Notes: generated from the letters alone by a model not told the origin. 64,000 bases of DNA from Patescibacteria group bacterium (GCA_039934415.1 JBDTME010000002.1:14351-78350); one strand, 5' to 3'; positions 3,806 through 61,165 are shown, counted from the first letter of the stretch. Translations and numbers: made by a program.

Positions 3806-3812
3806 CCAGCCG

Positions 3813-16892: not shown

Positions 16893-16919
16893 ATAGGTGA
16901 AACGATAATTACTCTGCCC

Positions 16920-17510: not shown

Positions 17511-17516
17511 ATTGAT

Positions 17517-18774: not shown

Positions 18775-19860
18775 ATGGAAACAAAATCACTGCTCAACAA
18801 GCGTATTCCTACAATTTTAGGGCTCATTGTCCTATTTGGTGCTTTGGGAGCTGGTGTTTTTTTCATTGGCGCAGGACCCGGCTTGTTTAGTCCGCGCGCA
18901 ACCCCTCAAACTACTCCGAAAAATGTCAAAATTACGAATATCACTGACACAACATTTACTGTTTCTTTTTTGACAGACGATTCCTCTGCTTCATTTGTTA
19001 AGTATGGGACTTCTGCAACCTCTCTCACCAACAGAGAAGGTGATGATCGTGATCAACTTGCCGGCAACGTTGGTACCTATAACACACACCACATTACTCT
19101 GCGTAATTTACAGTCGGGAACAAACTATTTCTTTACGATTGGCACGAGTTCCAATGGTCAATTTGATAACAATGGAAAACCTTACACAGTTAAAACCGTT
19201 CAAAAAGCGAGTAACCAATCTGCAGCTCAAACTATCTACGGCACAGTCTTAACGCAAGATTCCAATCCTGCAGACGGCAGTATTGTCTACGTGACAGTGG
19301 ATAAAGGGGCAGAAATGTCTGCATTAGTTCGGTCTTCAGGGACTTGGGCCATTCCTCTCTCTCAATTACGTGGTACTGATGGAGGCGTTCCGCCAGCAAT
19401 TACAACAAATACATTGATGCTCGTATTTGTACAAGGAAAAACCCCTCAAGATACTGCCACACTTACCACTACAGTAGGACAACCACAGTTTCCAGTCAAA
19501 ACTATTACATTGGGAGAGAATAACGCACCTGCAACGACAACAGCGCCAAGCACAGCTACTCAAGCACCTGCACAAGTTCAACCAACTTCTACTCCACAAT
19601 CTGGGACTAATGCTCAACCAGTTATCAGTGCATCTGGTTCGGCCAGTCCAACTATAAAAGTTTCAGTGACTATTAAACCAACAAGCACAACAGTTCCATC
19701 TAAGACACCAACGCCTACCACCGATACGGATATTACTATTCCTGCTACCAACGCACCAAAACCAATCTCTGGATCAGCAGAAGACACACTCGCTGTTTTC
19801 GTCGCTGGCCTTCTTCTGATATCATTTGGAGGTGTCTTGTATCTTTCAATTCGAAAGTGA
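18775..19860 (+). CDS. cell-surface protein with FN3-like domain and C-terminal PISGSA-TM-IRK sorting-signal-like tail
   Basis: 361 aa. N-terminal signal anchor. FN3/purple-acid-phosphatase-N-like block (TFTVSFLTDD...VKYG...HHITLRNLQSGTNYFF). Thr/Pro/Gln-rich linker. C-terminal motif, hydrophobic helix, basic end. Confidence 0.5.
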   Translation: METKSLLNKRIPTILGLIVLFGALGAGVFFIGAGPGLFSPRATPQTTPKNVKITNITDTTFTVSFLTDDSSASFVKYGTSATSLTNREGDDRDQLAGNVGTYNTHHITLRNLQSGTNYFFTIGTSSNGQFDNNGKPYTVKTVQKASNQSAAQTIYGTVLTQDSNPADGSIVYVTVDKGAEMSALVRSSGTWAIPLSQLRGTDGGVPPAITTNTLMLVFVQGKTPQDTATLTTTVGQPQFPVKTITLGENNAPATTTAPSTATQAPAQVQPTSTPQSGTNAQPVISASGSASPTIKVSVTIKPTSTTVPSKTPTPTTDTDITIPATNAPKPISGSAEDTLAVFVAGLLLISFGGVLYLSIRK

Positions 19861-19861
19861 T

Positions 19862-19897
19862 GAATTGATCGATACACTTTTTAAATCGATCAATTCA
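19862..19897 (+). terminator. perfect 11-bp inverted repeat immediately after the stop codon (hairpin; terminator or regulatory palindrome)
   Basis: AATTGATCGAT, 11-nt loop, ATCGATCAATT. T-rich loop but no downstream U-tract. Coordinates approximate to about 2 nt. Confidence 0.3.
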
Positions 19898-19940
19898 GGT
19901 AGAAACGCACATTCCTTACTGCAAAAATCACTAATTACCC

Positions 19941-21068
19941 ATGCCCACATCAACTCCGACCACTCCACCCGCTGCAGCACCACAGAACCCACCTGGAGGT
20001 TTTTTTATTCCCCAGAAAACAACGACAACAACAAACTTGAGTGAGTCACCAGTACTTTCAAGTCCAGCGATTAAAAACACTCCACCGGTAACACCAAATG
20101 TGGGACTCAAACCTTCGTCTTCAAGAAATAAAATACTGTTAGGGCTCTCGGTCGTAGTTGTTATATTAGTTTTGATTGGCGTCGGTGCTGGTCTCTATTT
20201 AACTCAAACAAACGTAGACAATCGGCAACAAGCCTCAACGTCCTCTGGCTCAGCAAAACTGACAGTTTCACCTGACTCTGGTACTTTCAAAGGAAACACT
20301 GAGCAACAAGTTAATTTTAGCCTAGACCTTACTTCGACTCCGATCACGCTATCAGATATCGAACTGTCCATCAGTTTTGCTGGGAAAATTCCGAGTGATC
20401 TGCAGTTTTTTCCTCAGCAACTCCAAAACTTTCTGCCTGCTGATATATCTATTACTGATTCTGATACAGGTAAATTACTTATTATTAGTTTCAAACCAAG
20501 TGGTACTCAAGGATTTAGTGCCACATCAACGAATATCAGTTTAGGTGTGCTTAAATTTACTAGCCCAGATTCTGGCCAGCTGAATTTACGGTTCAACGCC
20601 AGTGATTCAAAAGTACTGCTGCAACAATCTAATCTCGATATCCTCAGACCACCCAGCCTCGTCAGTTACTCTTTTGAGTCTAGCCTCACGCCATCCACAC
20701 TCCTAGAAAATGACCTCACGAATCTAGCATCAAGTTCAGGAAATGAAGTCGCGACCAACAGCGCAACGCCAACTCAAAGTCCAACTCCAACACTATCTGG
20801 AATAGGTGGCGCTATTCCTACAAACACACCGACACTGCTCGCCCAAATAAATACAACTACGACGCCAACCAATACACCCACCAAGACGCCTAGTTTGACA
20901 CCTACGCCAACTGACGTTCGAGAAAGTTCATTACCCGCTAACACGCAAGACACCCCAGTTTCAGGCTCTGCTGGCCTCACCGTTACTCTATTCGGATCTG
21001 GACTCCTATTCATCCTCACAGGCTTCTATTTGATACCAAAGAAAAAGGCGCTTCGATCTGACCACTGA
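19941..21068 (+). CDS. cell-surface protein, Thr/Pro-rich, with NRQQA leader and C-terminal PVSGSA-TM-KKK tail
   Basis: 375 aa. Pro/Thr-rich N-terminus. TM followed by YLTQTNVDNRQQA, which resembles the leaders of the Cys-rich proteins at 48930 and 51971. PT-repeat linker near the C-terminus. C-terminal motif, TM and basic tail. Confidence 0.5.
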   Translation: MPTSTPTTPPAAAPQNPPGGFFIPQKTTTTTNLSESPVLSSPAIKNTPPVTPNVGLKPSSSRNKILLGLSVVVVILVLIGVGAGLYLTQTNVDNRQQASTSSGSAKLTVSPDSGTFKGNTEQQVNFSLDLTSTPITLSDIELSISFAGKIPSDLQFFPQQLQNFLPADISITDSDTGKLLIISFKPSGTQGFSATSTNISLGVLKFTSPDSGQLNLRFNASDSKVLLQQSNLDILRPPSLVSYSFESSLTPSTLLENDLTNLASSSGNEVATNSATPTQSPTPTLSGIGGAIPTNTPTLLAQINTTTTPTNTPTKTPSLTPTPTDVRESSLPANTQDTPVSGSAGLTVTLFGSGLLFILTGFYLIPKKKALRSDH

Positions 21069-27352: not shown

Positions 27353-28451
27353 TCGAACACATATACCAAAAAAATCAGTGCAGCTTGTAACAGAGTGTCT
27401 CAACAGCGGTTGGATTTCTGGTCAGGGCAAATATGTTGAAAAATTTGAAAAAAAGTTTTCTCAATTCGTCGGTACAAAGTACGCATTAGCTACGAATTCA
27501 GGCACATCCGCACTTCATTTAGCGATACTAACTCTAGGTATTGGCCCGGGTGACGAAGTGATTTTGCCAGCATCAACCATTGCATCCTGTTTTTTTGCGA
27601 TCTGGTATACAGGAGCAAAAGCCATTCCTGTTGACGTAACACCCGACACCTACACTATAAATCCTCAGCTCATAGAGTCACACATCACAAAAAACACTAA
27701 AGCAATCATGGCTGTTCATCTCTATGGACATCCTTGCGACATGGATGCATTAGTTCATCTCTGTCATAAGCACAAATTATTCTTGATTGAGGACGCAGCT
27801 GAAGCACACGGAGCAGAATACAAAGGTAAAAAAGTTGGAAGTTTTGGTGACGTAAGCTGTTTTAGCTTCTACGCTAATAAACTCATCACAACTGGCGAAG
27901 GTGGCGCAGTGGTAACAAATAGTAATTCACACCATGTGCTTGCTAAAAAACTAAGAACACTTTATTTTTCTGATCAAAAACGATTTATTCATGATGGTAT
28001 CGGATATAAGTACGTGATGACAAATCTGCAAGCAGCGCTCGGCCTCGCTTCTCTAGCAGAGATAAAGAAATCAATTTCATTCAAAAAGAAAATGGCAGAG
28101 TTATACCAAAATCATCTCTATGAGATTCCAGGTTTAATACTTCCGATAGAAAAAGTGAACTGTTCAAACGTATATTGGATGTATGCCATTTGTATTGAGG
28201 AAAAAAAGTTTGGAATGAATAGAGATCAACTCATGGATATTTTATGGAATAAATATCATATCGAAACGCGAACATTTTTTTATCCCCCAAACATAGCCTT
28301 TGCATCTCTAGGCGTTTTCTCAAAACAATATTTCCCTATAGCTGATAAAATCTCTCAAGAAGGTCTGTACTTACCATCAGGTCTAGGGAACACTACTGAA
28401 GAGTTTAAGGCAGTTTGTAATGCAATCCAAAAAATTTCCAAAACCCATTAA
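27339..28451 (+). CDS. DegT/DnrJ/EryC1/StrS-family PLP-dependent sugar aminotransferase (ArnB/WecE-like)
   Basis: 370 aa; N-terminal block VTECLNSGWISGQGKYVEKFEKKF...ATNSGTSALHLA and a Lys-containing active-site region typical of the family. Confidence 0.85.
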   Translation: MIPVSRTHIPKKSVQLVTECLNSGWISGQGKYVEKFEKKFSQFVGTKYALATNSGTSALHLAILTLGIGPGDEVILPASTIASCFFAIWYTGAKAIPVDVTPDTYTINPQLIESHITKNTKAIMAVHLYGHPCDMDALVHLCHKHKLFLIEDAAEAHGAEYKGKKVGSFGDVSCFSFYANKLITTGEGGAVVTNSNSHHVLAKKLRTLYFSDQKRFIHDGIGYKYVMTNLQAALGLASLAEIKKSISFKKKMAELYQNHLYEIPGLILPIEKVNCSNVYWMYAICIEEKKFGMNRDQLMDILWNKYHIETRTFFYPPNIAFASLGVFSKQYFPIADKISQEGLYLPSGLGNTTEEFKAVCNAIQKISKTH

Positions 28452-30531
28452 GTTTTTTTTAAAAAAGGAAGTGCTTGCAGTTTGTTGCTGCTTTTTGTTT
28501 ATTTTGGCACTTTCTTGGAAAGGCTTGAATTGGGGGAGATATGAATCCTGGAATGCTGATCAGATGGCATTCAAAGACATTTTTATACAGAATGAAACCC
28601 CATTCAATCCAAAGTGGTTTCTAAAACCTCCGTTCTACACATACTTTATTTTTTTTGTAAGTGAGTATCCTCTAAATACGCTCTCTACCTTCCTCCACTT
28701 AAACCTAACTGACTTAGACACTATGAAATACTTGTGGGCAAAGATTTTGAATGTTCTAGCTTATAGTCTCTCCTGCGTCATCTTATTTAAAATCATTAGA
28801 AAAATTCGGCCAGTTGAAATAGCAGTAACTCTTACTGTCATTTTTATAACAAGTGCAGGAATGATTCCTTTTCTTTTTTTTCTGACACCTGACCTTTTCT
28901 TAATTTTATGGATGCTACTTTCCTTTTATTTCTCTCAATTAGTCTATGTCACTGACGATAAAAAAATAACAAACTATGTTCTTGCTGGTTTTTTTGTAGG
29001 AGTATCTACAGCATGCAAATATAACGGCGGCATTGTTTTGTTTGCTCTAATGATTTTTCACTTTTTAAGTCTGAAGAAATCCAATTCAAACTTGATAACC
29101 ACAAAAAAAAACCTCTTATTGTTTTCAGCCATGGGGGTTGCCGCACTTGCCTTTTTGATCTGTAATCCTTTCTCAGTTTTTGATTTCCCCACTTTCTCTT
29201 CAGACCTGTACTATCTTCTTACTACTGATGGCGCATATTTCGACATGGTAGTGAATTCGCAAAATGGACTAATTCGTTTCATTTTGCAGTTTCTTGAACT
29301 GATGGGAATTCCGGCTTTTATCCTACTCTTTATTTCAGTTGCACTTTCATTTAAAGCAAGAGCACAATGGAAAATGAAACTGACCGCGACTTTTCTTGCT
29401 TCATTTAGTTTGCTCCTAATTCCAGCTTTTATATTTTATAGTTATCGCGAAATACCAACTCGTTACGTGCTTCCTCTGTATCCGTTTTTACTCATTTCAG
29501 TAGCATGTTTATTTGATAAAAAAGTTATCTTCCAAAAAATTTTCATTGCCTCTCTGCTACTAACTCTTTCTTACAACATATTTTGTTCACTACAAGTCAG
29601 CACTCGATTTTCCCAAGATCCTCGGACACAGATGCAACGTGAAATCCTGACACTCATTCCTCCTTTTTCTAAAGTTGAACAAACCGCTTTCACGCCCAAT
29701 ATACCAACTGCATCAAAATCAAAATTCTTAATCTCTGAAATACCCATGATCACAGGTAGGAATCGCTACTTCAAAGAAAAATTCAAAGACAATGAGAAAA
29801 TTTTGAGTTTGATTGATCATCACGAAGGTACCGAAAATCTCAATTGGTTTAGTTCTGAAAATTTTCAAAAGAGAAACCCGGATTACATCATTTTGGACTC
29901 TTGGCAATATTTCTATGTGGGTAGCCCGTACATACAACAAAACTACCCTGAACTCGTAAGCTATTACAACTTCTTACTAGAGAAACACGATAAATATAGG
30001 GTGGTTTTTCAAAAGCAGACACCACTTCCACCCTGGTATCTATATCCTCGTGATATTGATTTTTTACAAAACACGATTACTTTACTTGAGCTCGATAATA
30101 ACGAAGTGAATTATGATATTGACGTTACAAATATCCGCCAGCAACTACTAAGTCAAACCCGTCTTATCCTTCTAAATACTGAACAAAAAAAACTGATGTA
30201 CAAATTTGCTACCTTCGAATCTATAAATAGTAATATGGAGAAATCTCAATTACTCTACAATCTCGCAGTTCACTTTAATGGTAAAATCCCACCAGAGCTA
30301 ATTGAAAATCTTTTGCAATTAAGTGTCACAACCTCGCCTGGTTGGAGTCATTTTTATATTGAAACGGCTAATTACTATTGGGAACATAGTGAGTATCAAA
30401 AAGCTCAAGATACGTTAAGAGCATGTTTGAAAATTCAAGTAGCGCAAGAACATTGCTTCAACATTTATAAAAAAGATACCTTGGGGAAATTTGGTGAGCT
30501 TTTGAAGTCCATTAATTCACTACCACAATGA
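28420..30531 (+). CDS. GT-C fold polytopic membrane glycosyltransferase (ArnT/PMT-like, GT39/GT83 family), tentative
   Basis: 703 aa. The N-terminal ~400 aa carry about 11 TM helices, with an acidic first-loop motif (RYESWNADQ). Soluble C-terminal domain. Follows the aminotransferase. Confidence 0.45.
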   Translation: MQSKKFPKPIKFFLKKEVLAVCCCFLFILALSWKGLNWGRYESWNADQMAFKDIFIQNETPFNPKWFLKPPFYTYFIFFVSEYPLNTLSTFLHLNLTDLDTMKYLWAKILNVLAYSLSCVILFKIIRKIRPVEIAVTLTVIFITSAGMIPFLFFLTPDLFLILWMLLSFYFSQLVYVTDDKKITNYVLAGFFVGVSTACKYNGGIVLFALMIFHFLSLKKSNSNLITTKKNLLLFSAMGVAALAFLICNPFSVFDFPTFSSDLYYLLTTDGAYFDMVVNSQNGLIRFILQFLELMGIPAFILLFISVALSFKARAQWKMKLTATFLASFSLLLIPAFIFYSYREIPTRYVLPLYPFLLISVACLFDKKVIFQKIFIASLLLTLSYNIFCSLQVSTRFSQDPRTQMQREILTLIPPFSKVEQTAFTPNIPTASKSKFLISEIPMITGRNRYFKEKFKDNEKILSLIDHHEGTENLNWFSSENFQKRNPDYIILDSWQYFYVGSPYIQQNYPELVSYYNFLLEKHDKYRVVFQKQTPLPPWYLYPRDIDFLQNTITLLELDNNEVNYDIDVTNIRQQLLSQTRLILLNTEQKKLMYKFATFESINSNMEKSQLLYNLAVHFNGKIPPELIENLLQLSVTTSPGWSHFYIETANYYWEHSEYQKAQDTLRACLKIQVAQEHCFNIYKKDTLGKFGELLKSINSLPQ

Positions 30532-48929: not shown

Positions 48930-50495
48930 ATGGTTTGTATCCTGAATAGTAAGATATTACACACGCTACTCAATAAGCGAATTTCTATGTCAAACATTCC
49001 AGACCGCCTCACAGCTGCATTTAGCCAAGTTAAAAAAGATGTCAAAATGCTGACCAGTTCTCAAACATATTCCAAAATGTCACAGAACCAGATCATCGGC
49101 GGATTGACAATGCTGCTATTGACTGTGGGCGTAGCCGCTGGAGTATATCTCGGTCAGATCAGTCAAGAAAATAGACAACAAGCATTTGTTCCTTATGACA
49201 CTTGTGTAAGTGGTGACAGTAATTGTATAGGACATGGTGATGGTTTCGCCTGCAGCAGTAACGGTCGCTGTGCATTAAGCCAACTTACTGGAAGTTGTTC
49301 ATGTGACCAAACAAATCCAATACCAACTGGCACAATCAGTCTCGGTTGTAGTTCAGGGCAAGAGTTTTTAAATGAAAATACCTGTAATGCTATTTGTGGA
49401 GGAGGTTGTATCCAAGGTGGCATTGGGTATTGCTGTGTGGGTACAGGCCCGACTAGCACACCTGCTTTAGATAATGGCTGCGCTGCTAGTGGCGGTACTT
49501 GCAAAGGGACTTGCGGAGCTAGTGATACACAAACTGGCCTTTGTTCTGGTTCAAGCTCTGGACCAAAATGCTGTAAACCAGTATTACCAACAGCCACCCT
49601 TTTCTGTTGGGGCGCAGGAACGGCTTGCGGAAACTCAGGTGGTAGCGCATCTTGTTGCCCAGGGCTGTCCTGCACAATTGATACTTCCGACAATAATACC
49701 GCCAAGTGTACGGCCCCTGCTAATTGTGGAAATAATGTCTGCTCACAAGGTGAGAATTGTACTACCTGTCCAACTGATTGTGGTCTTTGTCCTCAACCGA
49801 CCAACACGCCTGTCCCAGTGAGTTCTTGCCCATCTGGTGAAACTTGTGTAGAAACAGCAGGTACTTGCGGAGGCATCGGCGGTTCTTTGACATCTAATCG
49901 TTGCGGATCAGGAAATTCACAGTTTTGTTGTTTAGTTATCGATTCATGTCCAAGTGGAGAAACTTGTGTCGAAAATGTTCAAGCTTGTGGCATCATCGGC
50001 GGAACGACTACAAGTAATAGGTGTGGCTCAGAACAAGATTCGAAAACATGTTGTAAGTTGAACTCTGGTCCATCGGCTGCACCTCGTCCAACCAACACAC
50101 CAGTTCCATTACCAACGAACACATCAGTGCCTGTCAGTCCAGGGCAACCAACAAATACGCCTGTTCCAAATCCAAACCCAACGAATACGTCAGTGCCTGT
50201 GGCAACAGACGTACTCGCCCCAGTCTGTGTGAATATCACAATGAACAATCCAGCATCACTGACACCTAATACTCCACCTAACACGGGTGACGTGGTGACC
50301 TTCACCTGTTCTCAAGTGGCTGGCGCAAGTCGATATGAGTTCCGCGTCAAGTTACCAGACAACTCATATGTCAACATCAACCCAAGTCTGGCAACACTCT
50401 ATGTGTCGCAGCAATACCAGATCCCTTCAGCTGGTACTTTCACAGCTGCTTGCCGACCATGTAACGCAAACGCCTGTTCAGCTTGGGAGAATTAA
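48930..50495 (+). CDS. secreted/anchored Cys-rich surface protein, paralog A (type-B leader; C-terminal RYEFR-WEN domain)
   Basis: 521 aa. TM then YLGQISQENRQQAF. A Cys-rich module about 90 percent identical to the one in 51971. Further Cys-rich repeats, a PTNT linker, and a conserved C-terminal domain ending ...CSAWEN-stop. The true start may be the internal MSNIPDRL. Confidence 0.6.
   Translation: MVCILNSKILHTLLNKRISMSNIPDRLTAAFSQVKKDVKMLTSSQTYSKMSQNQIIGGLTMLLLTVGVAAGVYLGQISQENRQQAFVPYDTCVSGDSNCIGHGDGFACSSNGRCALSQLTGSCSCDQTNPIPTGTISLGCSSGQEFLNENTCNAICGGGCIQGGIGYCCVGTGPTSTPALDNGCAASGGTCKGTCGASDTQTGLCSGSSSGPKCCKPVLPTATLFCWGAGTACGNSGGSASCCPGLSCTIDTSDNNTAKCTAPANCGNNVCSQGENCTTCPTDCGLCPQPTNTPVPVSSCPSGETCVETAGTCGGIGGSLTSNRCGSGNSQFCCLVIDSCPSGETCVENVQACGIIGGTTTSNRCGSEQDSKTCCKLNSGPSAAPRPTNTPVPLPTNTSVPVSPGQPTNTPVPNPNPTNTSVPVATDVLAPVCVNITMNNPASLTPNTPPNTGDVVTFTCSQVAGASRYEFRVKLPDNSYVNINPSLATLYVSQQYQIPSAGTFTAACRPCNANACSAWEN
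49174..49441 (+). repeat. dispersed direct repeat copy 1 (Cys-rich module DNA)
   Basis: About 270 bp; roughly 85-90 percent identical by eye to 52211-52478. Confidence 0.7.
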
Positions 50496-50509
50496 AATTA
50501 GACTTATTG

Positions 50510-50545
50510 GTAGGGGTTTCAGCAATTGGAATCCCTACTGTTTAA
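50510..50545 (+). terminator. hairpin after Cys-rich protein A gene (weak terminator candidate)
   Basis: GTAGGG, 17-nt loop, CCCTAC, followed by TGTTTAAT. Confidence 0.25.
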
Positions 50546-50606
50546 TAACTGACTCGTTATTTTGAATGAAAAATGCAACCACGATTGAACGAAAAAGTAA
50601 TATTTT

Positions 50607-51962
50607 ATGGATAGGAAACCTAACCTCCCCTTCCGGTGGAACTCTGTTTTAATCATAGGTCTCATTGTTTTAGTCGGAATTTTTGCAGTTGCCACAGCTC
50701 TTTTTCAGAGAAATCGTGGCCCTCTCGCTCCAAATGCACCTGGATCTCAACCAAAAGCTGATGTTGTCACTGAAGGATGCACGGTTCGCTTCTCCATTTC
50801 AGATGATGCTAATCTCACATGCACCAAAAGAGCATTTCTAGATGAGCTCGACAACATTGCAGGAACCTATCATTTAAGAAATGAAATTCAAAGCATAAAA
50901 GCTGGTGATATCGTCGTCTTCAATATAGATATCCAAAATAACAGCAGCACTGGAACGACTGTGAATTTAAATGATTTGTTTGCAGTGAGTCCCTCTGTTT
51001 CAAATGCCGTGGAATACATTGACTCAAATTGCCCAGGAGGCGGTACCTTTAATCAAAGTACACTCAATTTGACCTGCTCAAATAAATTTGTCGGCGGCGG
51101 TCAAAACCAACAACTCACTTTCCGAGTCAAAGTAAATGCCGCTGCCACAATAGGTACTCAGATCAGTAACACGGCTACAACTTCCGATGGAACAAGTACC
51201 GCAATTTGTACTAGGAGCATCATCGTTGCTGAAGCAACGACTCAAAAAGCCTGCAATCAAAGCTGCGAAACAAGTAAAGAATGTACTGGCACTTTAGAAT
51301 GTACGAATGTAAATGGTTTGTTTGTTTGTAGAGATCCACAAATTCCTAGCGATTCAACATGTGGTGCACCGACTGCCACCCCAACCTTTACTCTAGTCCC
51401 CAGTTCTACGTCTACTTCAACACCAACACGTACGCCGACCAGTACTCCTACTCCTACTCATACTCCAACGGCTACATTCACTTTAGTGCCTACGGCGACG
51501 AGTACTCGAACACCAACTCCAACATTTACTAATACGCCAACTAACACTCCTACAAGAACTCCGAGCCCAACGGCTACTTACACACCGTCGCCTACTTTCA
51601 CTGCACTGCCAACAAGCACAGGCACGGTTACACCAACGGCCACGTTCACTATTACTTTGACACCATCTGCTACGGCTACAACAAGAGTTCTCGCTCAATG
51701 TAACCAGGGTTGCAGTACTAATGCTGATTGTGCCAACTCTAATCAAATTTGTTACACCACGAATGATGGAAATCGTTGTCGTCTCGCAGATAACGTCGGC
51801 AGCGACAATTGCTCGACCACCATCGCTTCGGGTGCAACGTCGACTCCATTCATTCCTCAGTTACCAAAATCTGGTAGTGAAAACCAACGAGTGTTGCTCA
51901 TAGGTGGGGTCATCCTAGTTGTGATCATCATCGGAATTGTGGGCTTCTTACTCATTTTGTAA
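50607..51962 (+). CDS. surface protein with type-A leader ([11 protein letters not shown]), PT-repeat linker, Cys-rich C-terminal module and LPKSG-TM C-terminus
   Basis: 451 aa. TM then [29 protein letters not shown]. Thr/Pro tandem repeats. C-terminal [33 protein letters not shown]-stop. Confidence 0.6.
51365..51690 (+). repeat. imperfect tandem ACN-CCN (Thr-Pro) coding repeat tract
   Basis: Encodes TPTxT/TPTFT repeats inside the 50607 gene. Confidence 0.6.
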
Positions 51963-51970
51963 AAGATTTT

Positions 51971-53548
51971 ATGAGTGATCAAAATTTACCACCACAATCA
52001 AATAATGGCCTGGATGAAATCCTGAAAGAGTTGGAACAACGCTTTGGCATTAATACTGACCAATCGGAAAACCAATCCGACTCCAAAAAAAATAGTGGTG
52101 TTAATTTTAAACGATACGGCAAAAACCAAATTATTGGTGGATTAACACTGGTACTCTTGGTTGTTGGTGCAGTTGCCGGTATATACCTTGGTCAAACAAA
52201 TCAAGAGAACAGACAACAAGCATTTAATCCTTATGACACTTGCGTAAGTGGTGATGGTAATTGTTTAGGACATGGTGATGGTTTTGCCTGTAGTAGCAAT
52301 GGTCGTTGTTCACTGAGTCAGCTCAATGGGAGCTGTTCCTGTGACCAAACAAATCCGATACCAACTAGCACCATTAGTCTCGGTTGTAGTTCGGGGCAAG
52401 AGTTTTTAAATGAAAGTACTTGTAATGCCATTTGTGGTGGCGGATGTATCCAGGCTGGCATTGGGTATTGCTGTGTCGGAAGTGGTTCTAACCCAACCAA
52501 TACTCCGAGTAGTCCAGGCATCACTAACACCCCCAAACCCACCAACACTTCTGTCCCCACTACTCCTGGAGCTCCGACAAATACACCCGTCCCAGTGTCG
52601 ACAACCCAACCACCTGCAAGTACACCTGGCAATCCAGTCAACACACCTGTCCCCGTCCCTGCCACTGCCACACCGCCTACTTCGTGCGGAAATAGTATCG
52701 TGAATACTGGAGAACAATGTGATGACGGAAATTCAAACAATAATGATTATTGTTTGAATAACTGCACATTGAGTTCTTACTGTAAATTTTATGATTTAGA
52801 GGGTTTACCCATTGGAGAAATGCAACCGCTAGGAAGTCCCTACTCAGCAGATGGCATACAATTTTCTAGCAACGGTCAATATTGGGTTGGGAACTATGCC
52901 AGTGTCTTAATTGACCCAGCAGGTGGAGCTGCCTCACCGGTGCACGGTATCTGCGTAAATAACTGTGCTCAAGGGGCATTCGATATATTCTTTAATCCAC
53001 CGGTCGATTTCTTTGGCATAGTTGTGTTTAGTGGACCGAGTTTAGATCCAGTAACATCAACAACAGGACTTACATATTATTACGGCACGAGTAGTAGCCA
53101 GTATGTTAGTAATACTGAGACAGCATACACGCGACATACTATTTCACAAACTGGCATCAATCGCGTCAATTTAACATCATCAAATTCTTATGAAGGTTGG
53201 GATGATATAGTCATTTGTAGATTTCCAACACCAACAAGTACACCGACTACCGCAATTGGCCCTACGTGTAATGGAATCAAAGTTTCATACGGAAACAGCA
53301 ACGAACCAACCAGACCTGTTCGGATTGGTGATAACTTAACGTTCACTTGTGGCACCTTAAGCAGTGCAGCTCGCTATGAATTTAGACTGTTCTTAAACGG
53401 AGTTTTCTTGCAAAACATCAATCCAATTTCCACATCGGCTAGTATTTCGCAACCATTTCCTATTGCACAAAGCGGGAACTATAGTGCACAATGTAGGATG
53501 TGTACTGATAGTACAGCTACAAGTTGTCAATCTTGGGAACCACTATGA
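51971..53548 (+). CDS. secreted/anchored Cys-rich surface protein, paralog B (type-B leader; C-terminal RYEFR-WE domain)
   Basis: 525 aa. TM then YLGQTNQENRQQAF. Cys-rich module near-identical to paralog A. PTNT linker, then a central beta-rich region. C-terminal ...ARYEFRLF...CQSWEPL-stop. Confidence 0.6.
   Translation: MSDQNLPPQSNNGLDEILKELEQRFGINTDQSENQSDSKKNSGVNFKRYGKNQIIGGLTLVLLVVGAVAGIYLGQTNQENRQQAFNPYDTCVSGDGNCLGHGDGFACSSNGRCSLSQLNGSCSCDQTNPIPTSTISLGCSSGQEFLNESTCNAICGGGCIQAGIGYCCVGSGSNPTNTPSSPGITNTPKPTNTSVPTTPGAPTNTPVPVSTTQPPASTPGNPVNTPVPVPATATPPTSCGNSIVNTGEQCDDGNSNNNDYCLNNCTLSSYCKFYDLEGLPIGEMQPLGSPYSADGIQFSSNGQYWVGNYASVLIDPAGGAASPVHGICVNNCAQGAFDIFFNPPVDFFGIVVFSGPSLDPVTSTTGLTYYYGTSSSQYVSNTETAYTRHTISQTGINRVNLTSSNSYEGWDDIVICRFPTPTSTPTTAIGPTCNGIKVSYGNSNEPTRPVRIGDNLTFTCGTLSSAARYEFRLFLNGVFLQNINPISTSASISQPFPIAQSGNYSAQCRMCTDSTATSCQSWEPL
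52211..52478 (+). repeat. dispersed direct repeat copy 2 (Cys-rich module DNA)
   Basis: Matches 49174-49441. Confidence 0.7.
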
Positions 53549-55503
53549 AACAAAAATACCCCATCCTTTCATCACAATTCGTTGATTCGGTGTTCACACC
53601 GCTGTCACTCGTTCTAATTAGTATTGTTGCCATCATTGCTGTGGCAGTGGCTTTGTTCCAAGTGAATAAAGGTCCAGTAGCTCCTAATGCTCCTGGGTCA
53701 CAACCAAAAGCAGCCGACTTTACAGGACAAACTTGTGCCCTCACATTTGTCGTTGCTGGACCATCAGCAACACCAGCTCCTCAGGTCATTGATTTAGAAT
53801 TACAAAAGACCGCAGATAAGTCAGCAGTAAATGTCGGTCAACAAATCACCTTCACAGTTTCACTTTTCAACCGAGGACCTGCAGATGCAACAAATGTCCG
53901 AGTTCAGGATATTTTGCCAACCGGGTTGCAGTACGTTTTAGATACTAGCAGCGGTGCATACAACTCGACGAGTGGCGTTTGGAGCATTGCTAGTTTAGCT
54001 GCGAATCAAACTGTCAGTCTCAATATTACGGCAACAGTAACTCAATCTGGTTCTTTAACTAACTACACTCAAGTTTCAGCTGCAGATCAAACCGATGTGG
54101 ACTCCACTCCAGGAGATAATTCTGGAACTGGCACAGTTGCACATCAAGACGATGACAGCGCAGTTGTGATCAATTCAACAGCCAACACTAGTGACCTTGA
54201 ATTAACCAAACGTGCTAACACTACAACTCCTTCAGTCGGAGGCTCAGTAGTATTCACTATTGATGTTGTGAACAAAGGCCCACAGAACGCAACCGGTGTC
54301 AAAGTAGCCGACTTACTCCCAACTGGATTGAGCTATCTGTCTCACTCCACTGCAACCGGCAACTTTAACTCTACTTCAGGTATCTGGGATATCGGGAATT
54401 TAGCAACAGGTTCAACTGTGAGTTTGACATTGACTGCACAAGTCAACACCACCTCACCTGTAACAAATTACTCTCAGATCACAGCCAGTTCCCCAACGGA
54501 TTCAGATTCAACACCTGGAAATAACTCAGGAAACGGAACAGTGCCACACGAAGATGATGATGACTCGGTCGTACTGACCCCTCAGTCAACACCTACGAAC
54601 ACACCTCCGGCAGTAAGTGCTGATCTATCACTGACCAAACAAATCAGTAATAGTACACCAAAAGTCGGAGAGAACATCACATACACTGTTACGGTCTACA
54701 ATGCCGGACCAAATGACGCAACCAACGTAACAGTCAGTGAGCCACTCGTAGGAGGAACAACATTCGTCTCTGCTACACCGTCTCAAGGTACTTACAATGT
54801 ATCGGCAGGCCTTTGGACAATTGGCACCATTCCTGTCAACCAAAGCAGAACCTTGCAGATCGTCGTGACTGTCAATGTCTCGACCAGCATAACCAACACT
54901 GCACAAGTTCAGCACAGTGACCAACCTGATCCAGACTCTACACCGGGCAATAACAACCCAAATGAAGATGATCAACAGTCAGCTACAACAAACCCTGTTG
55001 CACAAGGCGCTGATCTATCACTCAACAAACGAGTCAATGTGACCAGACCAGTCGTTGGACAGAATGCAATCTTCACAGTTGAAGTGCATAATGCAGGACC
55101 TCTGCAAGCAGATAATGTGACCGTCAAAGACTTGGTCCCATCAGGCACCACCTTTATTGATGCTCAACCTTCTCAAGGTAGCTACAATTCAGGAAACGGT
55201 ATCTGGACGATCGGTTCGATCACAAAAGATTCTACGGTAAGCATACAATTAACGCTGAGAGTTGATACCAACTCACAGATCGTAAACGTGGCAGAAGTAG
55301 CATCAAGCAGTCAACCTGACCCTGACTCTACACCAAACAATAACAATCCAAACGAGGATGACCAAGATGATGCAGTTCTAAATCCTCAGACAGCAGCAGC
55401 TTTACCAAAGTCGGGAAATGCTTCAAACACCACCCTCTTTGTCATAGCAACTGGAGTCATAGTATTGATCATCGGAGCCATGGGACTGCTACTCCTTCTG
55501 TAA
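53545..55503 (+). CDS. DUF11-repeat surface protein with type-A leader and LPKSG-TM C-terminus
   Basis: The ATG overlaps the upstream TGA (ATGA); ORF-track start 53524 is a TTG. TM then [28 protein letters not shown]. Five DUF11-like repeats (LTKxxS...VxNxGPxxATxVxVxDxLPxGxxF). DSTPGNN spacers. C-terminal LPKSGNASNTTLFVIATGVIVLIIGAMGLLLLL-stop. Confidence 0.7.
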   Translation: MKQKYPILSSQFVDSVFTPLSLVLISIVAIIAVAVALFQVNKGPVAPNAPGSQPKAADFTGQTCALTFVVAGPSATPAPQVIDLELQKTADKSAVNVGQQITFTVSLFNRGPADATNVRVQDILPTGLQYVLDTSSGAYNSTSGVWSIASLAANQTVSLNITATVTQSGSLTNYTQVSAADQTDVDSTPGDNSGTGTVAHQDDDSAVVINSTANTSDLELTKRANTTTPSVGGSVVFTIDVVNKGPQNATGVKVADLLPTGLSYLSHSTATGNFNSTSGIWDIGNLATGSTVSLTLTAQVNTTSPVTNYSQITASSPTDSDSTPGNNSGNGTVPHEDDDDSVVLTPQSTPTNTPPAVSADLSLTKQISNSTPKVGENITYTVTVYNAGPNDATNVTVSEPLVGGTTFVSATPSQGTYNVSAGLWTIGTIPVNQSRTLQIVVTVNVSTSITNTAQVQHSDQPDPDSTPGNNNPNEDDQQSATTNPVAQGADLSLNKRVNVTRPVVGQNAIFTVEVHNAGPLQADNVTVKDLVPSGTTFIDAQPSQGSYNSGNGIWTIGSITKDSTVSIQLTLRVDTNSQIVNVAEVASSSQPDPDSTPNNNNPNEDDQDDAVLNPQTAAALPKSGNASNTTLFVIATGVIVLIIGAMGLLLLL

Positions 55504-55535
55504 AAGTAGAAAGAGTTCGTTTAAAACGTAAAAAG

Positions 55536-55569
55536 AAAAGAGGTCTTATTCATTAAGGCCTCTTTTTTT
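55536..55569 (+). terminator. rho-independent terminator after DUF11 surface-protein gene
   Basis: AAAAGAGG, 15-nt loop, CCTCTTTT, then a T7 run. Confidence 0.5.
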
Positions 55570-55659
55570 CAAGAAGAAAGTGAGCATAAAAGTTAGGTGA
55601 AAAAGTAAACAGGATAGAAAGTTAAGTACTTTTTATAAAATTTTTAGAATATAAACGAG

Positions 55660-56535
55660 ATGCAAGAAAGTTTTACTCCTCCGACACAAACTGAACCACA
55701 AGTTTCAAGAGTATCCAAAGTAAAAATGGTTTTGCCTATTTTAGGAGTGGTGGTGGTTGCAGTTGCTGCCGTAGCAGTGAGTTTATTTTTATCACAAAAG
55801 CAGGAACCAGTTGCACCAAATGTCCCCGCCTCACAGCCAAAAGCCTCGGAGATCGTTAATGATATTACTTGTACTTTGAACTTTGAGGTACTCGCACCGA
55901 CTCCGACGCCCACCTTTACTGCAACCTTGACGCCAAGCAATACACCTACTGCTACCCCTACTTTTACGCCAACGAGAACGCCGACCGCCACGCCTACTTT
56001 TACCCCTACACCTATTCCTCCAACGAGTACTCCTACTCGAACACCAACACCAACTGCTACAGCCACTCCGACTGCTACACCAACGAGAACACCAACACCG
56101 ATTCCACCGACCAGTACTCCGACAAATACGCCGACATCGACACCAACATCGACACCAACTGCCACTCCGACTAGAACACCAACGATCACGTTAACACCGT
56201 CAGCAACTGCTACTTACACTCCATCAGCGACTCCAACCTCACCAATTGCCGCTACTTGTAACTCTATTAAGATGATCTATGGCGTTGGGGAGCCAGACAG
56301 AGCACCAAAACTCTCTGACAATGTTCAGTTCCAATGTGGAACAATTGCAGGTGCATCTCGATATGAGTTTAGAATTCTGGCTCCTGCACCGAACAATACC
56401 TACCAACCTTGGCCAGCTATCTCTGGAGGAACATTATCTCAACCATATACCATCGCTGCGTATGGTTCGTACAGCGCGCAATGTCGAGCTTGTGCCGGAG
56501 TTGATGCTTCAAGCTGTCAGCCATGGGAAAACTAA
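55660..56535 (+). CDS. surface protein with type-A leader, long PT-repeat linker and C-terminal RYEFR-WEN domain
   Basis: 291 aa. TM then [31 protein letters not shown]. About 110 aa of TPTxT repeats. C-terminal ...[10 protein letters not shown]...CQPWEN-stop. Confidence 0.55.
55893..56245 (+). repeat. imperfect tandem ACN-CCN (Thr-Pro) coding repeat tract
   Basis: Encodes PTxTPT repeats. Its reverse complement yields the spurious GV-repeat ORF 55644-56189. Confidence 0.6.
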
Positions 56536-56611
56536 CGACTACATTGATCTTCACCAGATTGTTTTTTTAAGAAAAATTCTCTACACTTAAAAGTGGAATC
56601 AATTAATATAC

Positions 56612-58261
56612 ATGCTTACTTTATCCAGTCTCTGGCGGTCGAAGCGTTCAGTGATGGCAGTGCTTGCCATCGTAGTTGTGGCTGTAGCAGCTGTAGGTAT
56701 TTCACTTTTTCAACGTTTTTCGCAAGGAACCCTCGCTCCCAACGCTCCACAGTCTCGACCAGCGGCTTCAGAAGTAAACTCAAATACCTGCACATTAAGT
56801 TTTTCAGTTGAACCACCCGCTGCTCCGTGTATCGCATTGACAAAAGTTGCTAGCCCCATCTGTTTGCCAAATGGTTCACCTGGCGCCCAAATTACTCTCG
56901 GAACGAACGCGACTTGTCCTCCTCAACCAGGAACTCGTAAACCAGTTGATGTCATGATCGTGATGGATAACTCAACTTCTCTATCTGCCGATAAATTTTG
57001 GGGTCCGATTAAAACTGCAACTGCTAATAGTGTGATGAATTTCGATCCAGCTGTAGACAGAGTTGGTTTAGTAACTTTTAATCGCAGTGCGACACTTCGC
57101 TCTGGTTTGACGAATAATCTTAGTTCAGTTCAATCAATTGTTGATAATTTGTCCGTTCCAGCCAGTGGATCAGCGACCAATATCGGTAATGGATTAGAAA
57201 TAGCAAAAAATACACTGGCGAGCACTGCCCGACCAGAAGCAGTCAAAGTAGTTATCTTATTCACAGATGGCCAGGCAAATGCAGATTCCACACTCACGAT
57301 CTGCGATACCTTTGATCTGAACTGGAACTCATGCAAACAGCACGCTCAAACTCAAGCAACGCTTATTAAGAGTGCTGGAAGCACCTTGTATGCTGTTGGA
57401 TTTAATACGGTGAGTGAAACACAGCATCCAGGCTCAACTGCGATGTTGCATGATTTACTTTTACAAATGGCCTCTTCGAGTAACACGTATTACACCTCAA
57501 ACAACTCCACTGAACTCGCTGCTGCATTTGCTCACATTGCAGATACTATTACCGATACTTTGGCAAATAGCGCAGTGATCACAGATATTCTTCCTCCGGG
57601 AATTTCGCTCGTTTCCGGAAGCGCCATCCCTGCTTTTACAACTCAAAGTGGCCAAACGCTCACTTGGAATCTGGGTACAGTTGGAGTTGATCAACAAACC
57701 ACAGTGACATTTCAAGTTGCTTTACCCAACTTCTCAGCCAACCAACTCGTTGACGTCTATCCCGACTCCGAAATCAACTACACTGACCACTTAGGCAATC
57801 CTATTACATTGTCTTTCCCTGAAACTCGAGTTTCACCGAATACTTGTGCGACACCAACTGCTATTCCTTCACCTACTTCTAATCCAACTAACACACCAAC
57901 AAGTAGTCCAACGCCGACTTTCACGGCCACCCCAACTAACACCAGGACGCCTACACCAACTTTTACAGCAACTCCGACGAACACGCCAACAAATACTCCA
58001 ACGCCTACCAATACTGCAACCAATACGCCAACACGCACCCCAACACCGACGGCTACTGCCACAGCGACGAGTACTCCTTCACATACACCTACGCTGACTG
58101 CAACCAATACAGCAACTCAAACACCAACATCGACATTCACGCCTACTCCAACCCCACCAGGACTGCCGAAAGCTGGCACTACAGGACCAACATTCATGAT
58201 TCTAGGAATCGGCGTTGCAGCAATCGCCTTCGGACTGCTGGGAATCTTGTTACTCTTCTAG
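56612..58261 (+). CDS. von Willebrand factor A-domain surface protein with type-A leader and LPKAG-TM C-terminus
   Basis: 549 aa. TM then [28 protein letters not shown]. vWA blocks [12 protein letters not shown] (MIDAS DxSxS), [17 protein letters not shown]-repeat linker. C-terminal [32 protein letters not shown]-stop. Confidence 0.7.
57850..58160 (+). repeat. imperfect tandem ACN-CCN (Thr-Pro) coding repeat tract
   Basis: Encodes PTNTPT repeats. Reverse strand gives the spurious ORFs 57778-58107 and 57846-58097. Confidence 0.6.
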
Positions 58262-58327: not shown

Positions 58328-58401
58328 GCGCCTGTAGCTCAATCGGTTAGAGCATCAAGCTTATACCTTGAGGGTTCTAGGTTCGAGTCCTAGCAGGCGC
58401 A
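58328..58401 (+). tRNA. tRNA-Ile with anticodon UAU (TAT)
   Basis: 74-nt cloverleaf folded by hand. Acceptor GCGCCTG/CAGGCGC with discriminator A. D-arm GCTC/GAGC. Anticodon stem TCAAG/CTTGA, loop CTTATAC with U33 and A37. T-arm CTAGG-TTCGAGT-CCTAG. No encoded CCA. Confidence 0.85.
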
Positions 58402-58413
58402 CAGGAAAAAATT

Positions 58414-58831: not shown

Positions 58832-61165
58832 TTACAATTTCGCTCGTTTATTCATATCTTCTTCGACAACGGCACGGGGTTTGCCATATTTCAGTCGTGA
58901 CAGTTCTTTGATCATCTCAGCAAGCTTGGGGTTCATCTGAGCTTTTTGAGCATCCATGTCCTTTTTCAGAGACATGCTAAATGGTGGAACGGGTTCATTT
59001 CCGACAATTGTCTTGATATACACGTTATATTTTTCAATATTAGTTAAATCATTTTCGGAAAACACCGGTGCAAATTCGTGCTGCAAGAAATTGGCATCAG
59101 GTACACCGACACGGAAACAAATCATGGTACCAACGTTTCCAAACACAGCATTTTTGACATCTTCTTCGATCTGGGCTACAAATTGATTTGCCACAATTAG
59201 ATTCAATCGATATTTCCGAGCCTCGGACAGAATAACGGCAAAATCTTCAGTCGCATAATTCTGAAACTCATCAACGTATAAATAGAAGTCAGTACGCTGT
59301 TCCATCGGAATATTTGCACGACCCATTGCAGCTGTCAACACTTTCGGCACCAAGATCAAACCCAAGAACTTTGCATCCTCTTCACCCAACTTTCCTTTAG
59401 ACAAGTTCACTAATAAAATTTTCTGCTCATCCATAATTCTGCGAACATTAAACGCACTATCCGATTGACCAATGATATTACGCATCGTTTTATTGGTAAT
59501 AAATCGACCGAACTTTGACACAATATAGTCCAGCACTTCTGACTTATGAAAATCAGACGTTTGAGCAATTTGATCCGTCCAATATCGGCGCACGATTGGA
59601 TCTTTGACATACGGTAGCATCTCTTCTACAAACTTCGCGTCGGTCAGTAAGCGAACCATCTCAATAAACGTTCCACCTGGTTTCGACATGATCGTTAACA
59701 TTGCGTTACGAATGGCGTGTTCGAATCGAGGACCGATGATACCTGTCTTGTGTGGATCGTACAGTTTATACATTAACCCAATCACGGATGACGCCACAAA
59801 ATGCTGCTCTTCTTCTGTAAAGGCCTCCATCATATTCATACCCATCGGTCGATCTGTATCAGACGGATTAAAATAAATCACATCCTCAGCACGCTCTGGT
59901 GGCATCAGCTGCATCACATCTTCCACAAACTCTCCATGCGGATCGATCGCGCAGACCCCTTTTCCATCCACAATGTCCTGCAAAATCATTTCTTTCAGGA
60001 ACTCCGATTTTCCTGTTCCAGTCTTTCCAATGATGTACATGTGACGTCGACGATCATCTAATCCCAAGAAGATTTTCTTATCTTGACCACGATAGGAACT
60101 TTTCCCAAGATACAAACCAGTCTGAGAAATGTTTTCAGGAGCCGGTGCGCTTTTCGCGTTTAACCAAAAAATGTGGTGAGTCTCGACAGTTTTATTAGGA
60201 AAATGAAAAACAGTCGCCAACTCTTCTGAGTTTAAAATAAATGAGCCACGATTAAACATCGGTATATACCGATAAATCATGTCGATCATGAATAATTGTT
60301 TGACCCAAATTCGAGTTTTTTCAAACGCATTAAATGACGAAGTGTATTGGGCGAAAGCACTCACTATATTATTTAAATGCGATTGAGCCGTCCTTTCTTG
60401 GGGAGAGGAGACCACAATTCGCATACTTACACGAAAACCTGGACGACTCACTTTATTATCAATACTTTCTAGTTGTTTTGGATCATTTCTGTATGAAGCT
60501 TTCTCTGGATCCGCTTCTTTCTTTTTGATATTAGAAACATACGAACTCCCACTTTTTTGCCACCCTTCGCCTTCTGGTTGAATCAGAATCTGCAACACAG
60601 CACCTTCACCATCCACCATTTTTGACATTGCAGAAGTGATCAAAGATAAACCATCTGTTGGCAAATCTTTGTAGGTTTTAATAGGAAAATAATTTGGATG
60701 TTTGAGATGAATAGCGCTAAAAGCCACTTTGCCGTGCTCAGAAAAAATATTCACCTCGTCGTGCTCTTCAATTCGTGCGCCAGGATACGCCCCATGAACT
60801 TGCTTCTCCACTAAGTCTCGCAGTGATCGAGGGACATTGATATAAAACTTAATTTCTTCTTTTAAGGCTACAATCTCAAAACCAATATGAGGCTGTGGCT
60901 TTAAGAAAGAGAACCAACCATCCTCACGCAATGAATGCAGTGACGCAAACATTTGCTCAGCTGCATCAATTTTAATTTCATTATCTTTAGGAAGTGCAAC
61001 TAACAGTGTGACAAAATCTAAGGAATATTTTTCTTTATTGCGATATTTAAACCATTGAAAAAACATGTACAAGAACACTGCCAAACCAAGCAACGAGATA
61101 AACAACAACACGAGCATGCTGACGTACACGAGCGACTGGGCGATGAGTTCGTTAAGTTGATTCAT
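58832..61165 (-). CDS. membrane-anchored P-loop NTPase of the TraD/TraG/VirD4 coupling-protein (FtsK-HerA superfamily, DUF87-like) type
   Basis: 777 aa. Two N-terminal TM helices. Walker A IIGKTGTGKS, resembling TraD GxTGxGKS. Walker B LYVDEFQNY followed by LIVANQ. Overall T4CP-like layout. Exact family not resolvable by eye. Confidence 0.5.
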   Translation of the reverse strand: MNQLNELIAQSLVYVSMLVLLFISLLGLAVFLYMFFQWFKYRNKEKYSLDFVTLLVALPKDNEIKIDAAEQMFASLHSLREDGWFSFLKPQPHIGFEIVALKEEIKFYINVPRSLRDLVEKQVHGAYPGARIEEHDEVNIFSEHGKVAFSAIHLKHPNYFPIKTYKDLPTDGLSLITSAMSKMVDGEGAVLQILIQPEGEGWQKSGSSYVSNIKKKEADPEKASYRNDPKQLESIDNKVSRPGFRVSMRIVVSSPQERTAQSHLNNIVSAFAQYTSSFNAFEKTRIWVKQLFMIDMIYRYIPMFNRGSFILNSEELATVFHFPNKTVETHHIFWLNAKSAPAPENISQTGLYLGKSSYRGQDKKIFLGLDDRRRHMYIIGKTGTGKSEFLKEMILQDIVDGKGVCAIDPHGEFVEDVMQLMPPERAEDVIYFNPSDTDRPMGMNMMEAFTEEEQHFVASSVIGLMYKLYDPHKTGIIGPRFEHAIRNAMLTIMSKPGGTFIEMVRLLTDAKFVEEMLPYVKDPIVRRYWTDQIAQTSDFHKSEVLDYIVSKFGRFITNKTMRNIIGQSDSAFNVRRIMDEQKILLVNLSKGKLGEEDAKFLGLILVPKVLTAAMGRANIPMEQRTDFYLYVDEFQNYATEDFAVILSEARKYRLNLIVANQFVAQIEEDVKNAVFGNVGTMICFRVGVPDANFLQHEFAPVFSENDLTNIEKYNVYIKTIVGNEPVPPFSMSLKKDMDAQKAQMNPKLAEMIKELSRLKYGKPRAVVEEDMNKRAKL

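Follow-up and report, generated by a model that had tools for sequence, protein, structure and literature searches.

A conserved Patescibacteria gene array that may encode modular surface fibres or adhesins joined plug to socket

Patescibacteria live attached to other microbes, and the means by which they hold on are largely unknown beyond type IV pili and Pam pili. The latter are donor-strand pili of immunoglobulin (Ig) fold found in bacteria of the Candidate Phyla Radiation (CPR) and described in Ca. Mycosynbacter amalyticus (bioRxiv 10.64898/2026.03.03.709456). Their PamA/B subunits consist of a 9-strand N-terminal domain, a linker that acts as donor strand and a truncated Ig-like C-terminal domain, and the proposed membrane anchor is PamR, which has an N-terminal strand, FnIII domains and a C-terminal transmembrane (TM) helix (bioRxiv 10.64898/2026.03.03.709456). 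Here we describe an array of six genes, g1 to g6 (positions 48930-58261), in a 64,000-nt stretch of DNA from an uncultured, ultra-small Patescibacteria group bacterium (GCA_039934415.1 JBDTME010000002.1:14351-78350), the whole of which we call the window. The evidence is computational throughout. We give an even chance to the reading that these genes form a conserved locus of Patescibacteria whose products are modular cell-surface fibres or adhesins, joined plug to socket and locked by disulfides; as to mechanism, this estimate rests on regularities of sequence and two AlphaFold2 (AF2) monomer models. The array would then be a variant of the donor-strand-assembled surface fibres, together with a large undescribed domain family.

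As the first-pass annotation of this DNA had proposed, six co-oriented open reading frames (ORFs) on the plus strand (48930-58261) alternate between two C-terminal types: g1, g3 and g5 end in a domain with the motif RYEFR (the putative socket), and g2, g4 and g6 in LPK[S/A]G followed by a TM helix (the putative anchor). The plug is a short N-terminal strand with one Cys. The six genes are:

g1, 48987..50495, plus strand: socket-only protein (putative 'tip') of 502 aa with 47 Cys; the longest ORF starts at 48930
g2, 50607..51962, plus strand: putative plug and anchor, 17 Cys
g3, 51971..53548, plus strand: socket-only protein (putative 'tip'), 25 Cys; its stop codon overlaps the start of g4
g4, 53545..55503, plus strand: putative plug, stalk and anchor, 652 aa with a single Cys
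g5, 55660..56535, plus strand: putative plug and socket (adaptor or shaft unit), 6 Cys; identical to NCBI ABI425_02965
g6, 56612..58261, plus strand: putative plug, VWA adhesin and anchor, 7 Cys

The start of g1 is probably the ATG at 48987, because homologues align from residue 20 of the longest ORF and the database copy P0127 begins there. Its product runs from an N-terminal cytoplasmic segment through a TM helix, leader B (QENRQQA), Cys-rich modules and proline/threonine (PT) linkers to the C-terminal RYEFR domain (~50211-50492; profile match 1.2e-37). That of g3 has leader B, a Cys-rich module in common with g1, a PT linker, a cysteine-rich acidic repeat (matched in Pfam/NCBIfam), a beta-rich domain and the RYEFR domain at ~53249-53545. 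In g2, leader A and the plug strand CTVRFSI (Cys58, 50778-50798) are followed by a CLIPPER-like Ig domain, a PT linker (aa 253-359), a Cys module, LPKSG (51861-51875) and the TM helix. The plug strand of g4, CALTFVV (53734-53754), contains Cys64, the sole Cys of the protein, and precedes four CLIPPER/DUF11 repeats (53779-55365), LPKSG (55402-55416) and the TM helix. g5 combines leader A, the plug strand CTLNFEV (Cys71, 55870-55890), a PT linker of ~120 aa and the RYEFR domain (56245-56532), its counterparts in relatives having an extra middle domain. Finally, g6 has leader A, the plug strand CTLSFSV (Cys60, 56789-56809), a VWA domain (56948-57520), a PT linker (aa 413-519), LPKAG (58163-58177) and the TM helix.

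In the mechanism that we propose, the plug strand of one protein would fill the missing-strand groove of the socket of another (donor-strand complementation), and one spare Cys on each side would form a disulfide locking the joint. The socket-only g1 and g3 would be distal tips, the plug-plus-socket g5 an adaptor or a shaft unit polymerising head to tail, and the plug-only anchored g2, g4 and g6 bases, held in the envelope either through the TM helix or through a sortase whose gene lies elsewhere in the genome. At every joint the C-terminus of the distal protein would meet the N-terminus of its proximal neighbour, and the last C-terminus would lie in the envelope. The overlap between g3 and g4 would deliver one tip per stalk, and recombination in the PT linkers would shuffle bodies among constant plug, socket and anchor modules. 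MdbA-like disulfide oxidoreductases and VKOR are enriched in CPR bacteria (PMC6744442). The wider proposal that this is a sortase- and chaperone-independent way of assembling fibres in monoderm ultra-small bacteria, with an N-terminal strand entering a C-terminal FN3 domain devoid of strand G, a disulfide seal, roles of tip, shaft and base set by the constant modules, combinatorial display of adhesins and a socket domain that constitutes a large unannotated CPR family, is put forward tentatively, as a possibility that falls short of an even chance.

The resemblance to the Pam pili is considerable. Both belong to the same superphylum and concern surface fibres of Ig-like fold with no trans-envelope machine; in Pam, too, a truncated C-terminal Ig-like domain takes a strand of the next subunit, the PamT tip is a socket only, and the anchor PamR carries, like the anchored proteins here, an extra N-terminal strand ahead of its FnIII domains and C-terminal TM helix. 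The statement of the first-pass annotation that nothing comparable was known in such organisms has therefore been dated by the 2026 preprint on Pam in CPR bacteria. However, Pfam reveals no genes for PapD/FimC-like chaperones with a TM helix (PamC/D in Pam) in or near the array, the plug is N-terminal whereas the Pam donor strand is an inter-domain linker, and a covalent lock is predicted from one spare Cys per side. The long PT linkers, the CLIPPER, VWA and Cys-knot bodies, the LPXTG-like anchor and the gene neighbourhood differ as well, in a comparison based on descriptions of architecture and neighbourhood. The array could alternatively be a divergent member of Pam, with chaperone-assisted donor-strand exchange, PapD-like membrane chaperones encoded elsewhere and Cys that merely stabilise the fibre. 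The occurrence of Pam in Saccharimonadia and Microgenomatia fits this explanation, as do the truncated Ig-like C-terminal domains, the anchor made of an N-terminal strand and a C-terminal TM helix, and the best named relative of the LepA encoded in the window, which comes from a Saccharimonadia metagenome-assembled genome (MAG; 66% identity). We consider it improbable, given that Pfam detects no PapD-like domain in any window ORF, that the neighbours here are MurJ-PilN-PilO and a VirD4-like ATPase whereas pam adjoins ATP synthase genes, and that the architecture is one of N-terminal plug, PT linkers and FN3-like socket.

Besides Pam, the nearest precedent is that of the disulfide-linked Ena fibres, and the logic of the proposed joint is that of the chaperone-usher pili. 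In the chaperone-usher pili (Fim/Pap) the tip is a socket without N-terminal extension, the shaft subunits have both elements, the terminator or anchor is a plug, and the pilin fold lacks strand G. However, these pili are Gram-negative, need a periplasmic chaperone and an outer-membrane usher, have no disulfide between subunits and show no detectable sequence relationship to the array. Neither Usher nor PapD has a Pfam match in the window, and CPR bacteria have been described as devoid of an outer membrane and of PilQ (PMC6744442). The Ena appendages of Bacillus (bioRxiv 10.1101/2020.08.21.260141) are fibres of monoderms in which N-terminal Cys connectors are disulfide-bonded to neighbouring subunits. 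They differ from the array in being made of single DUF3992 jellyroll domains stacked laterally, without FN3 socket or membrane/wall anchor motif, and in being found on spores. DUF3992 has no Pfam match in the array proteins, whose fold is FN3-like, and the principle of the disulfide connector is all that is shared with Ena.

The domain that closes g1, g3 and g5 is FN3-like and unannotated. Over ~95 aa the three copies share 37-46% identity (E 1e-13 to 1e-24, BLASTP with SEG masking), and neither this domain nor g1 or g5 as a whole has a match in Pfam or NCBIfam. Fourteen aligned copies have five invariant Cys in the pattern GDxVxFxC ... YEFR ... GxYxAQCRxC ... CxxWE. The corresponding profile finds 1191 clusters at E<=1e-3 (392 at E<=1e-10) among 1.84 billion representative proteins; this count comes from an exhaustive search of the representatives, a word-indexed search with the socket profile having given only 3 short proteins. 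The domain lies at the extreme C-terminus in 97 of 121 strong matches, and the proteins of the family usually begin with a TM helix followed by Q[DE]xRQQA, i.e., leader B. In the AF2 model of g5 the RYEFR domain has a predicted local distance difference test score (pLDDT) of 85-94 and, according to DSSP, strands A to F and no G. When the same profile is run on complete tandem FN3 repeats of unrelated proteins the match stops just before the 'TVVTL'-type strand G, so that the terminal RYEFR domain ends where strand G should begin. Searches of PDB by sequence and by fold gave generic FN3/Ig matches only, with no Foldseek match at E<=1e-3 and nothing significant for the socket profile. As modelled, the RYEFR domain is a truncated FN3-like 'socket' without strand G that belongs to a large undescribed family. 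Another locus (L015, 6001-7137), from the same sample as one of the array loci (L004), encodes a socket-only protein of 378 aa that has exactly 5 Cys, none of them in its body. Its gene stands by itself, remote from any array, which suggests that extra 'tips' are scattered through the genome.

The candidate plug is found behind leader A, a TM helix followed by [LV]AP[NT]AP.S.P.A; 7-10 residues further on there is an invariant strand C-x-x-x-F-x-V with one Cys. In distant loci the plug strand follows leader B or a small Cys module instead, as in 'ACVLNFVA' (L014), 'TCSLDITI' and 'LCTVIFNV' (L017) and 'ICTLGFTA' (L016). A role of this Cys as the modified residue of a lipoprotein was considered and rejected, there being no lipobox and the Cys lying ~25 residues past the TM helix. 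The cytoplasmic segments that precede the TM helix (g1 aa 20-55, g3 aa 1-50 and those of many socket proteins of the P01xx series) are conserved families themselves, with motifs such as '...LDDILKELEQRFG...' in g3-type and '...DRLTAAFxQVKKD...' in g1-type proteins. Plain Sec signal peptides are not usually conserved in this way, and the conservation hints at a step dedicated to targeting or regulation.

The most regular feature of these proteins is the parity of their Cys counts. When the proteins in the arrays of ten loci were classed by module, the socket-only ones always had an odd number (e.g. 15, 19, 21, 23, 25, 29, 31, 35, 39, 47, 49 and 67) and so did the plug-only anchored ones (1, 3, 5, 7, 9, 15, 17, 19 and 43). 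Proteins with both plug and socket had an even number (6 and 12), as had those with neither (14, 16, 18, 20 and 22), and no exception was found in these arrays. The only leader-A protein with an even count, L005_3, is one without the plug strand, and in the g4 family the single Cys in ~650 aa is the plug Cys. Among 98 independent representatives (<=50% identity), those without plug were 76 odd and 8 even, and those with plug 2 odd and 12 even (Fisher p = 1.2e-8; binomial p for 76/84 = 5e-15), four of the eight even-numbered exceptions being fragments of 83-104 aa. It follows from this rule that the other modules carry paired Cys and that socket and plug have one spare Cys each. The presence of plug, socket and anchor and the Cys parity would thus predict tips, linkers and bases from sequence alone, a testable assembly rule. 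If it holds, it would give a function to an unannotated domain family of >1000 clusters and explain the mosaic evolution of the adhesins, and the disulfide-locked pair of strand and domain could serve as a protein-ligation tool, like the isopeptide domains.

Several observations suggest contact between plug and socket. When g5 is modelled at full length with AF2, the plug segment, residues 61-80, folds into two strands at pLDDT 74-91, despite the ~120 disordered PT residues that come before the socket; when the socket was deleted and the same 8-sequence multiple sequence alignment (MSA) used, the pLDDT of the plug dropped to 58-59. There are also proteins in which both elements come together in the sequence. 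One of them (L012, 4608-5882) has an internal socket and, 10 residues later, the string 'ACNTNFTLAAV', and its Cys total is even; from its sequence it may be a natural example of a plug complementing in cis the socket that precedes it. In three tandem-socket proteins (P0163, P0215 and P0212) a short Cys-bearing strand follows the first copy and the Cys totals are odd, as expected if the last copy alone is open.

The gene order points in the same direction. Related loci with the array were found in four close cases (L003, L004, L005 and L008) and six distant ones (L011-L014, L016 and L017), and the order noted earlier, a RYEFR gene followed by an anchored gene, holds in every one of them. In all ten loci compared, the socket gene directly precedes a plug-and-anchor gene, with an ATGA overlap in five. 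In the distant loci the minimal unit is a RYEFR-ending gene, 2-23 bp, and a gene with an N-terminal strand and an LPXTG-like anchor. Orthologues of g1 and g2 are recognisable in the four close loci (g2 with 64-72% identity); the g2 counterpart of L005, L005_3, also has a VWA domain and is devoid of the plug strand. All the closer loci retain the overlapping pair of g3 and g4, and the third module varies. The start/stop overlap noticed in the middle pair is indeed present (53545-53548) and the same overlap is found in L003, L004, L005 and L008. The tight spacing ascribed to the pairs stands for g3 and g4 but not in general: the gaps from g1 through g6 are, in order, 111, 8, -4, 156 and 76 nt, and the tightest non-overlapping junction (g2-g3, 8 nt) falls between two modules. 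Being tighter than two of the three within-pair gaps, it implies that spacing alone does not define the pairs. Likewise, the suggestion of an anchored protein with a partner stands in that the pairs are real and their order conserved, but their likely basis is plug-socket complementarity and not polymerisation by sortase. The MAG records of L009-L011 and L013 are labelled 'uncultured Pseudomonadales bacterium' despite their Patescibacteria-type locus, probably because the submitted taxonomy is mislabelled.

The main rival is that each protein acts on its own at the surface and that no hetero-assembly takes place, g2, g4 and g6 being ordinary anchored fibrillar adhesins and g1, g3 and g5 being displayed separately, with ends that bind wall glycan or homodimerise through their spare Cys. 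The array would then come from duplication and domain shuffling for antigenic or host-range variation. We regard this as unlikely, though a serious competitor. In its favour, a large island for glycan synthesis lies next to the array, Gram-positive surface proteins often have wall-binding modules at the C-terminus, homodimers would fit the parity taken by itself, and some socket proteins, such as the one in L015, are encoded alone. Against it stand the dependence of the AF2 confidence of the plug on the socket, the variants with a plug in cis after a socket, the strict adjacency or translational coupling of socket and plug genes across wide divergence, and a socket that ends exactly where strand G should start.

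Other points weigh against joining by plug and socket. The leader A pattern was found at 5 loci in 4 of 185,579 species genomes, while the socket family is far larger, and therefore most sockets must have other partners, or none. The leaders are atypical: a cytoplasmic stretch of 20-75 residues comes ahead of the TM helix, and position -3 of the candidate cleavage site is Pro; for this reason the N-termini may stay in the membrane, which would complicate a linear fibre of tip, shaft and base. Docking is deduced only from the pLDDT of monomers with and without the socket, on an MSA of 8 sequences, and the contact predicted in g5 is intramolecular and might be the physiological state instead of a proxy for pairing in trans. 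Parity shows one unpaired Cys per module and does not distinguish hetero-pairing from homodimerisation. Finally, donor-strand systems normally need a chaperone, and no PapD-like one has a Pfam match in any window ORF, although a divergent chaperone could escape Pfam.

With the sortase-anchored adhesins and pili of Gram-positive bacteria, LPXTG proteins that have CnaA, CnaB or CLIPPER stalks and VWA tips, the array shares an LPXTG-like motif followed by a helix, a CLIPPER stalk, a VWA domain with its metal-ion-dependent adhesion site (MIDAS) and Pro/Thr-rich wall-spanning linkers. The proteins g2, g4 and g6 end in LPKSG, LPKSG and LPKAG, respectively, followed by ~6 polar residues and a ~22-residue helix ending in ...LLLL, and g2 is a borderline match to the LPXTG-anchor model TIGR01167 (16.7 vs. 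a cutoff of 15.9 bits). The motif varies among orthologues (LPRSG, LPRAG, LPETG, LPRTG, LPAAG, LPQAG and others) and the layout is kept, LPETG and LPRTG being found in distant ones. Elsewhere in the window, the proteins encoded at 18775-19860 and 19941-21068 terminate in P[IV]SGS, a TM helix and a basic tail, a second LPXTG-like type of anchor, and because of them S at position 4 may be the usual sortase motif of the lineage.

However, true sortase pilus islands encode their own class C sortase, and two features that define such islands are lacking here, namely a class C sortase linked to the locus and a pilin motif together with an E-box. There is no sortase domain in the window ORFs of >=120 aa (64 kb) and no TLxTC motif in any window ORF, and ~220 kb of related loci gave nothing in a scan for sortase-like motifs. 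The six proteins, scanned with regular expressions, contain neither the YPK pilin motif nor an E-box, and there is no basic tail after the helix of g2, g4 and g6 (no K or R among the last 10 residues). Besides, the array differs from the Gram-positive proteins in having S or A at position 4 of the motif, long and conserved leaders, and a socket protein paired with each anchored one. The likeness to sortase-assembled pili drawn by the first-pass annotation is thus not supported. As a sortase pilus island, the array would have g6 (VWA) as tip, g4 (DUF11) and g2 as shaft pilins joined by LPXTG-to-lysine transpeptidation, and the RYEFR proteins as accessory. The LPK[S/A]G ends with their hydrophobic helix, the score of g2 with TIGR01167, the canonical LPETG or LPRTG of distant orthologues and the combination of CnaA-like isopeptide stalks with a VWA adhesin, typical of Gram-positive pili, speak for such an island, and over half of the CPR genomes have been reported to encode a sortase, which is near-ubiquitous in Microgenomates (PMC6744442). 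Nevertheless, besides the missing sortase, YPK, E-box and basic tail, it leaves unexplained the parity rule, the truncated FN3 domain and the order of socket then plug, and we judge it very improbable.

The bodies of the anchored proteins g2, g4 and g6 consist of parts typical of adhesins: CLIPPER stalk domains, a VWA domain, Ig-like and Cys-knot modules and PT linkers. The expected matches to DUF11 (PF01345) and VWA (PF00092) were found by hidden Markov model searches in g4 and g6, respectively. The four repeats of g4 match DUF11/CLIPPER at 1.8e-127 in Pfam; their isopeptide Lys and Asn are invariant and the acidic position is D, D, E and D. A PDB sequence search with g4 itself gave nothing significant. 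A profile built from its repeats aligns with 9IFR, a crystal structure of CLIPPER, at E 1.6e-4, Lys and Asp falling on their counterparts. CLIPPER isopeptide stalk domains have been described (PMC12617251), and by its sequence g4 is such a CLIPPER/DUF11 stalk that keeps the predicted isopeptide positions. In g6 the VWA domain covers residues 113-303 (4.6e-21), with the MIDAS motif DNSTS at residue 119.

The all-against-all alignment of the six proteins bears out the sharing of blocks beyond PT repeats. With SEG masking, BLASTP gave 74% identity over 123 aa between the N-termini of g1 and g3 (a repeat of 300 nt with 81% identity at the DNA level) and, besides the RYEFR domain, a block of ~35 aa after the N-terminal TM helix common to g2, g4, g5 and g6. 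The alternative that only PT repeats are shared was rejected on this masked comparison. So was the idea that the genes are fragments of one degraded gene, as each has its own TM leader and its own C-terminal module and the orthologues are intact. A mosaic repertoire of surface proteins with shuffled blocks is supported by module swaps in related loci: L005 has a VWA protein with a RYEFR end beside one with an LPRAG end, and L003 and L004 have a leader-B protein with an LPKAG end. The g6-like VWA/LPKAG gene of L003 is broken up into two ORFs (11443-12441, 332 aa, and 12489-13130, 213 aa), which points to a frameshift or pseudogene or else to an assembly error. Long Gly/Val-rich ORFs on the minus strand opposite the PT linkers (55644-56189, 57778-58107 and 52318-52740) were rejected as genes, being by-products of the ACN-CCN codon repeats.

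The array keeps its genomic position in nine related Patescibacteria contigs, after an ABC-2 transporter or a cluster of MurJ, PilN, PilO and an FN3 protein, and before a VirD4-like ATPase. The window also encodes LepA, SmpB, a carbamoyltransferase and, downstream of the array, tRNA-Ile(UAU), the VirD4-like DUF87 ATPase, Maf, DUF192 and Lgt. Two of these neighbours recur:

MurJ-PilN-PilO-FN3 cluster: window 15029-21068; L012 1095-4607; L014 205-5225; L016 1-4775
VirD4/TrwB-like membrane ATPase (DUF8128 + DUF87 + TrwB_AAD_bind): window 58832-61165, minus strand; L003 20576-; L016 14216-16468; L017 17407-19740

The first is a conserved cluster of MurJ, PilN, PilO, a protein of ~150 aa and an FN3/Pur_ac_phosph_N protein, adjoining the array or upstream of it, with no PilM beside PilN. 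The ATPase gene lies downstream of the array, in opposite orientation, in all loci whose sequence reaches that far, and could be functionally linked to the array or merely syntenic. Between a Bac_transf gene and the array (~21700-46600) there is a glycan-synthesis island with a GC content of 31-37%, encoding glycosyltransferases, two Wzy-like proteins, a PMT_2-family transferase, GDSL esterases, Asn synthase and an ABC-2 exporter. It looks like an insertion, because no such island separates the MurJ-PilN-PilO-FN3 cluster from the array that follows it in L014 and L016. Its PMT_2 enzyme (28420-30531) might O-glycosylate the PT linkers. At the other end of the window (1196-6230, plus strand) two tandem class A penicillin-binding proteins (transglycosylase and transpeptidase) are consistent with a peptidoglycan wall able to bear surface proteins. 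The tRNA-Ile gene (58328-58402, plus strand; ARAGORN, and Rfam with 74 bits) comes directly after the array, and its anticodon UAU, which reads AUA without lysidine, is uncommon in bacteria.

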